Origin: a virus
Virus record (IMG/VR): IMGVR_UViG_3300027708_002747
Location: 20,682 to 84,681 of that record
Length of the DNA: 64,000 bases
Strand: one strand, 5' to 3'
Under the pieces are notes generated by a model, which saw nothing but the letters and a program-made list of their open reading frames with translations, was not told the origin of the DNA and made no database searches. Positions 41,867 to 63,953 of this stretch are shown here, in pieces. Position 1 is the stretch's first letter; each line of letters opens with the position of its first letter. A program made the translations under genes and the position numbers.

Positions 41867-42261
41867 GGGGATGTTTTTGGATTTGACAGGTATGAATCTG
41901 TCATAAAACGCACGTCGGGGCTAAACTAACCCTGTAAAACTGGTTTAAAACACAAACGGCAACACAATTGCAAAACTTTCTACACTCGGTTTAATCCGTA
42001 CTGAAGAAGTAACTGTAGCCTAATCTAAGATTAGTATACAACGGGGTCGGTGAGCATATAACCTTGCAACAGAAGCTTGTACCGTGGTGTGGTTTCTATC
42101 CGAAAAGGAACAAAGTGGAGGATTAGTTCTCAGTAAACCGAACCACTATAAAATAAGGGAATTGTGAAGTTTCGGATTGTTTAGAAAAACAATGACCTAA
42201 ACGTGTAGTGTTTTATGGTCGACATATTTGGACCGGCGTTCGAGTCGCCGCATCTCCACCA
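41867..42261 (+). ncRNA. ssrA: tmRNA
   Basis: 5' GGGGATG pairs with 3' CATCTCC-ACCA (G3:U alanine identity); 'GGATTTGAC' D-loop analogue; T-arm CGGCG-TTCGAGT-CGCCG; internal tag ORF 41958-42023. Confidence 0.92.
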
Positions 42262-44731: not shown

Positions 44732-44741
44732 AAAACAATAG

Positions 44742-44813
44742 TAGTTCCGCTTGGACTCGAACCAAGAATAGAAGATTAGAAATCTACTGTGATATCCCTT
44801 TCACCACGGAACC
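44742..44813 (-). tRNA. tRNA-Arg(UCU), CCA not encoded
   Basis: Reverse complement GGTTCCG...GTAGA-TT-TCT-AA-TCTTC...CTTGG-TTCGAGT-CCAAG-CGGAACT-A; TATATTTG promoter at 44822-44829 on the minus strand. Confidence 0.88.
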
Positions 44814-62148: not shown

Positions 62149-62898
62149 TTAAGAATAAATTCCTTGACTATAAATCTTCCATTCTTTTTGTCTTCTATCA
62201 GGATGAGTAAAATCTAAAAAATTAGATTTAACACCATTCAAAGAATTTGGATTAGTTTTTAAAGAATTACTTAATTTTGGAGCTTTTGTTGTACAACCTG
62301 CAAATCCAACTTGATAACATAATGACGATAATGCATCAACTTGATTTTGATTCAAATTAGGATACAAATTTAGTAACTTATTTGCTAATTTATCTAAGTT
62401 TGTTTTTAAAAATACTTTAGCTTTATCTTTTGTTATTGATGGGTCTTTAGGTGTTACTTTTCTACCATCAGGATAATAAACCGTACCATAACCAATTGTG
62501 GGTGTTCCTGATGGTGTTTTACCTTTTAAACAACAATCAACTTCACCCCTAACACATTTCCCACCTTTAGCATCATCATAAACACAAGGAACAAAAAACT
62601 CAATATTACCAACAAAATTAACAAGTTTGTCTGAAACACCTGTAGGTTTTTGAATACTCTTTGGTGTTTTTGTTCTTATCATCTTAAGTGCATTATCAAT
62701 AACACCTCCTGATTCTGGTTTTATTTGGTCTTTTGGTGGAGCCATAGAAGACCATTTATCCATAAAATTTGGTTCTTGGTTTGAAGGTTTATATCCCGCA
62801 ATTTTATTAATATCATCAAAAACTGATTGCTCATTAATATTTGGATTTAAACCCATCATTGATTTTATCTTACTAACTTCAGTTAATAAATTTCTCAT
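62149..62898 (-). CDS. GH24 lysozyme with an N-terminal leader
   Basis: 'IE......YDD...TPTIGYG', 'LNQNQVDALSSLCYQVG', 'RRQKE..IY'. Confidence 0.8.
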   Translation of the reverse strand: MRNLLTEVSKIKSMMGLNPNINEQSVFDDINKIAGYKPSNQEPNFMDKWSSMAPPKDQIKPESGGVIDNALKMIRTKTPKSIQKPTGVSDKLVNFVGNIEFFVPCVYDDAKGGKCVRGEVDCCLKGKTPSGTPTIGYGTVYYPDGRKVTPKDPSITKDKAKVFLKTNLDKLANKLLNLYPNLNQNQVDALSSLCYQVGFAGCTTKAPKLSNSLKTNPNSLNGVKSNFLDFTHPDRRQKEWKIYSQGIYS

Positions 62899-62971
62899 AC
62901 TGATAAATACTTTTTAATAAATATTTTGCTAATGTTGATTATTTTTAATAAAGAGCATATATTTAATTTTA

Positions 62972-63040
62972 ATGATAACAAAAAAAGTTAAAACAAAACT
63001 ACGAAATTTAAATAACAATAATATTTTTAAGAAATCCTGA
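62972..63040 (+). CDS. putative Asn-rich leader peptide MITKKVKTKLRNLNNNNIFKKS
   Basis: Five Asn codons out of six at 63005-63022; the stop codon lies in the 5' arm of the terminator. Confidence 0.55.
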   Translation: MITKKVKTKLRNLNNNNIFKKS

Positions 63041-63060
63041 CATTTGTCAGGATTTTTTTT
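63029..63060 (+). terminator. attenuator-like intrinsic terminator upstream of the AsnRS paralogue
   Basis: AAATCCTGAC-attt-GTCAGGA-T8; no full-size + strand gene ends here. Confidence 0.75.
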
Positions 63061-63095
63061 GCCCTTTTAATAAATAAAATAAAAAAAAACAAAAA

Positions 63096-63920
63096 ATGAA
63101 AAACACAGAAACTTACAACGAGTTAGTTCAAAAAATGAGAACATTCTTCCAAAACAAAGGTTTTAAAGAAGTTCCAACCCAATCAAGATTATCAATCTTG
63201 GCGGCGTGTGAAAATCCACACTCAATAACAACATTTAATTATCAAGGAGAAGTATGGCCACTACCACAGACAGGTCAAATGTGGTTAGAATACGAACTTC
63301 TTAAGAATCCTGAATGGAACGGTGTCTATTGTATTTCAACGTCTTATAGACAAGAAAAAGACCCAATTCCAGGTCGTCACGAAATGATTTTTCCCATGTT
63401 TGAGTTTGAATCAAAAGGTGGAATGAAAGAAATGTTAAAACTTGAATTTGAACTTTTAGATTATTTAGGTTTTGATTCACCTGTAGAAGTTAACTACGAT
63501 GATGTATGTGAAGAATATGGTGGAGTTTCAATCTTAGAAAACGAACACGAAACAAGAATGTGGGAAGAAAAAGGACCGGTAGTATCACTTCAAAATTTCC
63601 CATACAGAACAAACCCATTTTGGAACATGAGAGAAAGTGAAAACAAAATATTCAACAAAGTTGATGTAATCCTTTACGGGCAAGAAACAATTGGTTCTGC
63701 AGAAAGAAGTTCCAACGTAGAAGAAATGAGAAATAATTTCTACACAATAGAAAATGGAAAATATTCTGAAAAACTATTTGAACTATTTGGTAAAGAAAGA
63801 GTTGAAAAAGAATTAGAAGAATTCTTATCACATGATTTCTTCCCAAGATTTGGTGGAGGGATTGGAATGACTCGTTTATCAAGAGCTTACGAACTACTAC
63901 AACAAGAAGTAACAGTATAA
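63096..63920 (+). CDS. class IIb aaRS catalytic-domain-only protein, asparagine synthetase (AsnRS2/archaeal-type)-like
   Basis: Motif 1 'FF..KGFKEVPT', 'LPQTGQMWLE', motif 2 'SYRQE...GRH...FPMFEFE', 'ETIGSAERS', motif 3 'GGGIGMTRL'; no anticodon-binding OB domain. Confidence 0.75.
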   Translation: MKNTETYNELVQKMRTFFQNKGFKEVPTQSRLSILAACENPHSITTFNYQGEVWPLPQTGQMWLEYELLKNPEWNGVYCISTSYRQEKDPIPGRHEMIFPMFEFESKGGMKEMLKLEFELLDYLGFDSPVEVNYDDVCEEYGGVSILENEHETRMWEEKGPVVSLQNFPYRTNPFWNMRESENKIFNKVDVILYGQETIGSAERSSNVEEMRNNFYTIENGKYSEKLFELFGKERVEKELEEFLSHDFFPRFGGGIGMTRLSRAYELLQQEVTV

Positions 63921-63925
63921 ACCAT

Positions 63926-63953
63926 AAATCCCCTCATTAGAGGGGATTTTTTT
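63926..63953 (+). terminator. intrinsic terminator
   Basis: AAATCCCCTC-atta-GAGGGGA-T7. Confidence 0.8.

Follow-up and report, generated by a model that had tools for sequence, protein, structure and literature searches.

An Asparagine-Codon Leader with a Terminator Precedes a Synthetase-Like Phage Gene: A Conserved Candidate Attenuator

In the DNA analysed here (the window), the final 64 kb of an 84.7-kb viral contig with a completeness rating of 29% (IMG/VR record IMGVR_UViG_3300027708_002747; 30% G+C), a gene for a 274-residue protein related to aminoacyl-tRNA synthetases (the synthetase-like gene) is preceded by a short open reading frame (ORF) rich in asparagine (Asn) codons, and this leader ORF ends in a predicted intrinsic terminator. 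Judged by comparison with related viral loci, the unit is a conserved leader-peptide attenuator with an enrichment of Asn codons in the leader frame. Our preferred reading, to which we assign a probability of about one half, is a translation-coupled attenuator that operates without an antiterminator and would be ON when Asn is plentiful; the enzyme under its control would probably be linked to pyrimidine synthesis and not be an asparagine synthetase.

Architecture of the Leader Region

The synthetase-like gene is separated by 197 nucleotides (nt) from a lysozyme-like gene (Table 1). A preliminary description of this DNA had listed in this gap a leader ORF with its TGA in the 5′ arm of a hairpin, a U8 tract and 35 nt to the next gene, and all of these parts were found where it had placed them: the TGA (63038–63040) lies inside the 5′ arm, and 35 nt separate the end of the T8 tract from the gene ATG (63096). 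The minimum-energy fold of the hairpin has 13 pairs with a G+C core (63035–63041 against 63046–63052), and the fold of 62940–63110 scores z = −3.2 relative to shuffled sequences. Because the upstream lysozyme-like gene is divergent, no gene ends at the leader terminator, which the same description had also pointed out. The synthetase-like gene has its own terminator behind it and is therefore monocistronic.

A dedicated scan found 14 terminator-like sites in the window; the leader hairpin is one of them, and the other 13 are located at gene ends. A simple terminator scan of the window did not list the leader hairpin, because it counted the A/U extension into the stem and was left with too few T residues. 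In an Rfam scan of 62700–63300 (E up to 10), no family reached its gathering score; weak matches to small RNAs driven by their terminators appeared, and the best sub-threshold match of the leader region scored 25.8 bits against a gathering score of 54.

The preliminary description had cautioned that AAT/AAC runs are not rare in DNA of such composition. This concern did not hold in the window, where the leader run is the only run of at least four consecutive AAY (AAT or AAC) triplets on either strand of the 64 kb. Among 678 short ATG-initiated ORFs of 7 to 30 codons in the window, three have at least five Asn codons and only one, the leader, has four Asn in a row. Asn accounts for 7.3% of the residues in the long ORFs of the window versus 5 of the 22 residues in the leader peptide. 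The layout of leader and hairpin is thus well beyond chance.

Conservation in Related Viral Loci

A scan of viral contigs gave 589 relatives of the protein; the locus counts are based on the best 80 (75–99% identical). A perfect hairpin followed by a T-run lies 16–55 nt before the gene in 70 of these 80 loci; of the ten others, nine lack a site of this kind, and one has just 23 nt of upstream DNA. Counting the window, 71 sequences carry the hairpin, and 65 of them have a TATTTA-type box with an ATG 4–12 nt behind it; the ORF that starts there ends beside the hairpin. The stems share a common base and diverge above it, the changes always being matched on the opposite arm. Double changes occur at three of the five aligned pairs of the hairpin alignment, and every locus has a perfect stem of 6–11 bp; the alignment made with MAFFT was poor, as stem lengths differ, and per-locus stems were used instead.

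By peptide similarity, the leaders fall into 23 groups, one of which is the end of a longer gene. The leader ORFs have 7–26 codons and are unrelated in sequence between families, yet they remain open up to the hairpin; in two families, the ORF crosses the hairpin (41 and 44 codons) and has no Asn before it. With stops as frequent as in the other two frames, all of these frames would stay open to the hairpin with a probability of ~8 × 10⁻¹³. An accidental ORF beside a stray hairpin is conceivable in DNA of 30% G+C, in which A-rich ORFs and AT hairpins do occur. This explanation is refuted by the comparative data, namely the 70 of 80 loci, the covarying stems, the open frames and the frame-specific excess of Asn codons described below, and we regard it as next to impossible.

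The neighbour on the upstream side varies: the 23 families have genes from 16 unrelated groups there, on either strand; the device therefore belongs to, and travels with, the synthetase-like gene. The spacer between the T-run and the gene ATG is just 12–20 nt in several families, which leaves no room for a separate promoter, so that RNA polymerase must there cross the terminator to reach the gene. The spacer itself was also considered as a promoter site and rejected: the TTTG within the T-run has no TAnnTTTG-like box behind it at the right spacing, and some spacers are too short.

These observations also bear on the idea that the short ORF, promoter and terminator form an independent small gene or RNA, with the enzyme expressed by leaky read-through or from an unseen promoter. 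The unit does have its own promoter-like box and terminator, as other small phage genes do. Even so, it always precedes the same gene despite changing neighbours, the families with the shortest spacers offer no promoter space, and no Rfam family matches. Furthermore, the lack of a common sequence and the varying length of the peptides (7–26 residues) speak against a functional peptide and against a base-pairing RNA. We consider this explanation very unlikely.

Asn Codons Are Enriched in the Leader Frame

Frame counts were made with one representative per family, the exceptions being kept in. AAY triplets are distributed 76/32/23 over the three frames, with the leader frame named first (binomial p = 6 × 10⁻⁹), whereas the Lys triplets AAR (66/41/74) show no preference for the leader frame. 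Asn is the commonest leader residue (76 of 420), and two Asn in a row are found in 13 of the 22 families. Shuffles that preserve the open frame gave an expectation of 47–50 ± 6 Asn and never more than 67 in 1000 trials, and Lys was at its expectation. As a replicate, two further scans with diverged members as queries yielded 25 new kinds of upstream region and five new leader families, in which AAY triplets are distributed 16/3/2. Because the families share ancestry, the p-values are rough; the effect is sizeable and held in the replicate. The in-frame Asn codons, whose conservation in homologues the preliminary description had proposed to examine, are enriched in both sets.

It could be argued that the leader merely has to be translated, perhaps with sensing of uridine triphosphate (UTP), and that its richness in Asn is a by-product of A-rich, unstructured RNA. 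The leaders are indeed A-rich and unstructured; one has no Asn and three have one, the two families with ORFs that cross the hairpin have none before it, in five loci the end of a long upstream ORF takes the place of the leader, and the 9-codon leader of the Saccharibacterial orthologues is not Asn-rich. Composition does not explain the excess, however: the 76 leader-frame AAY triplets stand against 32 and 23 in the other frames and against 47–50 from the shuffles, the result was replicated, and the equally A-rich Lys codons have no frame preference. A by-product of this kind appears decidedly improbable.

Promoter and Translation Start

The promoter-like box lies 4–12 nt before the leader ATG in 18 of the 22 family representatives. 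A TTG is present at N17–23 from the box in nine of the 22, and a TTG or TTTA element is found at similar spacing in other families. Elsewhere in the window, a TATTTA(T) box is located at most 60 nt upstream of 27 of the 76 genes, often 5–9 nt before the ATG, and many start codons, those of structural-looking genes included, have the box 5–20 nt ahead. Near-leaderless transcripts therefore seem to be the rule in the phage of the window. The leader start is an ATG in every family picked, but the selection rule sought ATG alone. The leader is probably translated from a leaderless or nearly leaderless transcript, with its start placed by the spacing from the box.

Ribosome Position and Direction of the Switch

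To our reading of the folds, no separate antiterminator exists, in agreement with the preliminary description. When the leaders were folded without the 3′ arm, the 5′ arm was unpaired in 18 of 23 representatives, the energies were no better than those of shuffles, and the leaders were nearly unstructured. Any effect of the ribosome must therefore be direct. A ribosome is assumed to reach 11–12 nt beyond the first base of its A-site codon, and all positions below are counted from the first G–C pair of each stem (63036 in the window).

The first base of the stop codon lies between −17 and +12 (median −4) in all 25 families; in 20 of these it is no further from the stem than −11. The Asn codons are placed differently: 78 of 87 lie beyond −11, and the last Asn codon is within −11 in five of 24 families. 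The window has its Asn codons at −31, −25, −22, −19 and −16 and its stop codon at +2. A ribosome with the last Asn codon (63020–63022) in its A site would reach ~63031–63032, covering the A/U extension of the stem and stopping short of 63036; by the same reach, a ribosome on the stop codon would cover the whole 5′ arm.

On this comparison, the conserved feature is the end of translation abutting the predicted terminator, and three kinds of variant agree: the ORFs that cross the hairpin, the five loci without a short leader, in which a long upstream ORF ends at −11 to −16 from the stem, and the families with spacers of 12–20 nt. Because no antiterminator is seen and the stop codon, not the Asn codons, is placed at the hairpin, coupling of the pyrBI/rph-pyrE type is favoured.

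In the proposed mechanism, the phage promoter (62935–62965) would start the RNA at the leader ATG or a few bases from it, and a ribosome would translate the 22 codons of the leader up to the stop codon inside the 5′ arm of the intrinsic terminator. When this ribosome is close behind RNA polymerase and stands at the leader end, the 5′ arm would be masked, the hairpin could not form and transcription would read through into the gene. When charged tRNA-Asn is short, the ribosome would be held at the Asn codons, 16–31 nt before the first G–C pair; the held ribosome would leave the stem free, and transcription would stop at the U8 tract. The net outcome would be that the synthetase-like gene is made when Asn is plentiful. 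The U8 tract, a candidate polymerase pause, may speculatively add sensitivity to UTP. The sequence comparisons show the parts, their conservation, the Asn excess in one frame, the lack of an alternative fold and the geometry; from these we infer that the leader is translated, where the transcript starts, that the polymerase stops at the hairpin and which way the device responds.

The opposite direction had been put forward in the preliminary description: the gene would encode an asparagine synthetase and be ON under starvation, as a ribosome stalled at the Asn codons would cover the 5′ arm and allow read-through when Asn-tRNA is limiting. Such a device would follow the usual logic of biosynthetic and synthetase leaders, and it is consistent with the leader-frame-specific enrichment of Asn, with asparaginyl-tRNA synthetases (AsnRS) as the closest sequence relatives of the protein and the archaeal AsnA among its best folds, with a tRNA-Asn-like gene behind cyanophage homologues, and with the five of 24 families in which the last Asn codons are within reach of the stem. 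The spacing of the Asn run to the hairpin speaks otherwise, as the last Asn codon in the window is 16 nt before the first G–C pair and 78 of 87 Asn codons are too far upstream to mask a stem. Under starvation, ribosomes would already halt at the foremost Asn codons, further off still, and a ribosome on the stop codon would block the terminator in fed cells, so that the device would always stay open. With 21 bits, the protein is far from the AsnA cut-off of 322, and its orthologues accompany pyrD, pyrE and pyrF with no pyrB found. Taken together, a starvation-induced asparagine synthetase seems unlikely to us.

Reinitiation of the leader ribosome at the gene was set aside: PMC4833913 gives stop-to-start distances of ~10 nt for reinitiation at leader genes, versus 45–75 nt here with a hairpin between.

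The Synthetase-Like Protein

The protein matches the Pfam family tRNA-synt_2 (PF00152, class II D/K/N) with 47.2 bits against a gathering cut-off of 25 (E = 2 × 10⁻¹²). It has no anticodon-binding domain, and its 274 residues align to AsnRS chains of 420–440 residues in the catalytic part only. In PHROGs, it belongs to phrog_29758, a family of unknown function. The asparagine–tRNA ligase models (TIGR00457/NF003037) gave 27–29 bits, short of their cut-offs of 343–414, and the archaeal-type AsnA model (NCBIfam NF005053) gave 21.4 bits, short of its curated cut-off of 322. The best matches to curated families were AsnRS (29 bits versus 414), AspRS, archaeal AsnA and EpmA, all far below threshold. 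A sequence search of solved structures returned nearly all matches as AsnRS.

The AlphaFold2 model (pLDDT 85) has AsnRS, AspRS and archaeal AsnA as its best folds, about equally; the archaeal AsnA matches (PDB: 3rex, 3reu, 3rl6) have a Foldseek E of ~2 × 10⁻¹⁵ and TM scores of 0.65–0.68. In one sequence alignment, the block of residues 58–67 aligns with the matching block of AsnRS. Arginines 85 and 260 and the block 195–205 are invariant in 31 sequences, and we take them to be class II motifs 2 and 3. By these matches, the protein is AsnRS-derived and not a demonstrated member of any characterised family.

The family is large, with more than 8000 sequences in metagenomes and 265 places in species-representative genomes, including bacteria of the Candidate Phyla Radiation (CPR) and DPANN archaea, and it is annotated everywhere as a tRNA ligase. 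A search of the ESM Atlas returned the family's own clusters only. The neighbours in the phage loci (peptidoglycan amidase, metallophosphatase, Hsp70, PPK2-lysozyme, FKBP and PAS kinase) gave no functional hint. In a GenBank collection of phages, the gene was found in nine records only (cyanophages and huge uncultured phages), and the Asn-type leader was absent from all nine.

Gene Context in Cellular Orthologues

The scan of species-representative genomes gave 265 relatives, of which 80 loci were kept; these are 55–62% identical over the full length, except one partial copy at 79%. The holders comprise Patescibacteria, DPANN archaea, Dependentiae, Weeksellaceae, Chitinophagales, Saprospiraceae, and myxobacterial and Bdellovibrio-like metagenome-assembled genomes (MAGs). 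The neighbours in 79 loci were clustered, and one representative per cluster was scanned with Pfam. A pyrE/pyrF cluster (orotidine-monophosphate decarboxylase/phosphoribosyltransferase) lies beside the gene in 12 of the 79 loci, pyrD (dihydroorotate dehydrogenase) in eight and a Dus-family flavoenzyme in ten; the pyrimidine neighbours occur in several phyla, and some form same-strand rows (gene-pyrE-pyrF-pyrD or pyrD-pyrEF-gene).

Aspartate carbamoyltransferase (pyrB, TIGR00670) was over cut-off in none of 13 holder genomes, compared with 107 of 117 non-holders from one sampled order and 14 of 14 control genomes. Four of the 121 genomes of this order hold the gene, and the anticorrelation with pyrB has a hypergeometric p of ~1.2 × 10⁻⁴, not corrected for phylogeny. 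Dihydroorotase of the multimeric type (TIGR00857) was over cut-off in none of five holders, one of which had two strong sub-threshold matches, and the dimeric type (TIGR00856) had no match among the five; pyrD was present in all five.

This context suggests that an unknown ATP-dependent step, catalysed by the family, probably provides dihydroorotate dehydrogenase with its substrate where aspartate carbamoyltransferase and dihydroorotase are missing. Asparagine is possibly the substrate, a candidate proposed from an AsnRS-like pocket. If asparagine were the substrate, a switch that is ON when Asn is plentiful would make sense; for an asparagine synthetase it would be absurd. The leader had also been taken as independent support for asparagine synthetase activity, an argument not supported in view of the missed AsnA cut-off and of orthologues that lie beside pyrD, pyrE and pyrF in holders with no aspartate carbamoyltransferase found. 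Ribosome geometry and gene context are independent lines that lead in the same direction, and neither amounts to proof.

A more far-reaching version, which we put forward tentatively and think doubtful, would be a two-input attenuator that reads Asn-tRNA through the leader and UTP through the U8 tract. Carried by jumbo phages of freshwater Bacteroidota, it would gate an unrecognised AsnRS-derived, adenylate-forming enzyme that supplies dihydroorotate without carbamoyl-phosphate synthetase, aspartate carbamoyltransferase or dihydroorotase, possibly by ATP-driven ring closure from asparagine. Spare Asn would then be turned into pyrimidines for AT-rich DNA only while translation is not short of Asn.

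Evidence Weighing Against the Preferred Reading

Several points weigh against an attenuator that is ON when Asn is plentiful and serves a pyrimidine-linked enzyme. With regard to the leader, the assumed reach of the ribosome could be off by a few bases, and seven Asn codons lie at −15 to −12, just outside it; in the five families mentioned above, the last Asn codons are already close enough to mask the stem. Three leader families have a single Asn, and one leader has none. Leaders of nine codons need a polymerase pause for the ribosome to catch up, and no pause site was identified. RNA contigs of relatives (85–95% alike) from four sequencing runs show nothing on transcript starts or ends. One 435-nt contig from an RNA library joins 62845–62975 and 63046–63202 with 72 different letters in between; it also extends across the divergent promoter region, may be DNA and shows no start, end or strand, and nothing was drawn from it.

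With regard to the enzyme, the homologues of the cyanophages P-SSM7 and P-SSM2, which have no leader, are followed within ~10 nt by a tRNA-Asn (GTT) of 85–88 nt as called by ARAGORN; in the 3.8-kb stretch of P-SSM2 that was scanned, this tRNA-Asn-like gene is the sole tRNA call. It is a second, independent link between the family and asparagine, and would also fit a role in Asn supply or in the charging of Asn-tRNA. The completeness of the cellular genomes is not given, so that the missing pyrB is to be read as not found and not as proven absent. Five near-complete phage genomes carry the gene, with pyrD in none and pyrF in one of them; the phages would have to rely on host enzymes, and the suggested link to pyrimidines is one that rests on the cellular orthologues.

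Other Features of the Locus and of Its Relatives

The coordinates of the features are collected in Table 1. The GCCC that directly follows the T tract is also present after the T-run in several Patescibacteria loci (L251, L291, L272, L269), and no GCCC is found behind the other terminators of the window. ARAGORN located in the window a tmRNA with a 17-residue tag (41867–42261) and a tRNA-Arg (TCT; 44741–44813).

Table 1. Positions of the leader device, its neighbours and the cyanophage tRNA-Asn-like genes. Positions are those of the window unless a locus is named.
Feature	Positions	Strand	Remarks
Lysozyme-like gene (Phage_lysozyme)	62149–62898	−	Divergent, leftwards, upstream of the leader
−35-like hexamer TTGATT, putative leader promoter	62935–62940	+	Promoter listing TTGATT-17-TATATT, 62935–62963, sigma-70-like
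TATATTTA box (−10/Bacteroidota −7-like element)	62958–62965	+	6 nt before the leader ATG
Leader ORF, ATG start, 22 codons + TGA	62972–63040	+	ORF call; kept open up to the hairpin across families
Asn codons (putative sensor): AAT 63005–63007, then AAT AAC AAT AAT 63011–63022	63005–63022	+	
Intrinsic terminator hairpin (predicted)	63029–63058	+	5′ arm 63029–63041, loop 63042–63045, 3′ arm 63046–63058
T8 tract (U8 in RNA)	63053–63060	+	T8–T9 after the stem in nearly all leader-bearing loci
GCCC right after the T tract	63061–63064	+	GCCC in 15/22, ACCC in 2/22 family representatives
A-rich spacer, 31 nt, without Shine-Dalgarno or recognisable promoter	63065–63095	+	
Synthetase-like gene, 274 aa, class IIb aminoacyl-tRNA-synthetase catalytic core	63096–63920	+	Pfam tRNA-synt_2
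Terminator behind the synthetase-like gene	63926–63953	+	Terminator scans
tRNA-Asn-like gene	L082:2278–2364 (Prochlorococcus phage P-SSM7); L083:2304–2391 (P-SSM2)		ARAGORN; unusually long

Other viral relatives (L025, L032, L074, L114, L124, L134, L158, L217, L229) have a different conserved upstream architecture in place of the Asn leader: a GATATATACA-like box, a hairpin and A10, then TTTC a few bases before the ATG. In some of these loci a terminator with T8 precedes, and the T8 and A10 could pair. Before the homologue ATG in a 735-kb uncultured phage (LR756501; L084:1456), an imperfect G+C hairpin is flanked by T8 and A9, with a longer structured-looking stretch further upstream. The partial gene copy that is 79% identical is located on a 31.6-kb contig in a Fluviicola sp. 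MAG (L233) and has a hairpin of the phage type with T9 upstream; either a contig of phage origin was binned with the MAG, or the copy hints at which group the hosts belong to.

Upstream of the Saccharibacteria orthologues (L306:4839–4951, L283:468–580, L292:4841–4953, L255:708–820, L271:4840–4952, L273:4824–4936, L293:4839–4951, L309:4806–4918), a promoter-like TATGCTAA is followed by a conserved 9-codon ORF, two hairpins, and a U-run and then ATGCA. The start of this ORF is complementary to the U-run region, and no Rfam family matches; the region is a candidate attenuator or structured leader of another design. In a Weeksellaceae/Moheibacter group (L236, L238, L239, L241, L243, L248, L257, L259, L267, L277), a conserved motif of ~22 nt lies ~25 nt before the ATG with no hairpin, and the gene directly follows that for phosphoenolpyruvate carboxykinase on the same strand in 12 loci.

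Comparison with Known Systems

The stand-alone class IIb catalytic core, the similar size and the lack of an anticodon-binding domain are shared by the synthetase-like protein and archaeal-type AsnA. The two differ in that the protein falls as far below the AsnA cut-off as given above, the folds of AsnRS and AspRS score as well or better, and the context of the family is one of pyrimidine genes and not of asparagine metabolism.

Leader-peptide attenuators are textbook devices of enterobacterial amino-acid operons, and pheM, located before pheST, illustrates that synthetase genes can be under such control. Like trpL, hisL, leuL, thrL, pheL and pheM, the phage device has a short leader ORF in which codons for one amino acid stand in tandem, then an intrinsic terminator and the gene. 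It departs from them in having no alternative 1:2, 2:3 and 3:4 pairing, in Asn codons that are scattered and mostly far from the stem, and probably in the opposite sign of the response; nor does any Rfam leader family match it. To our knowledge, asparagine is not among the amino acids with a described leader. Full-text searches brought up no publication that describes a leader with Asn codons, the present family of phage genes or a pyrimidine enzyme resembling AsnRS, in line with the earlier remark that no described phage Asn attenuator was known. A phage-borne, probably leaderless Asn-codon version without an antiterminator is thus new to the literature searched.

The closest resemblance is to the attenuators of pyrBI (with its leader pyrL) and rph-pyrE in Escherichia coli and Salmonella, in which a ribosome that has advanced up to or through the 5′ arm prevents the hairpin. 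As in these systems, the phage device has an intrinsic terminator without an antiterminator, a stop codon near the stem in every family, a long U tract (U8–9) and a gene whose genome context suggests a link to pyrimidine synthesis. The ORFs that cross the stem in two phage leader families recall pyrL, and the five loci in which a long upstream ORF ends near the stem recall rph. A UTP-sensitive pause region of the kind known from pyrBI and rph-pyrE was not identified in the phage device. Other differences are that the transcript is probably leaderless, that the device is phage-borne (with probable Bacteroidota hosts), that the gene is neither pyrB nor pyrE, and that the phage leader has tandem Asn codons, so that the speed of the ribosome would be sensed and not that of the polymerase alone. 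The switch directs attention to a widespread cargo enzyme, and makes a possible missing route to pyrimidines directly testable. If the favoured direction is true, amino-acid sensing has been grafted onto coupling of the pyrBI type, giving a leader that is ON when its amino acid is plentiful, the reverse of the classical logic.

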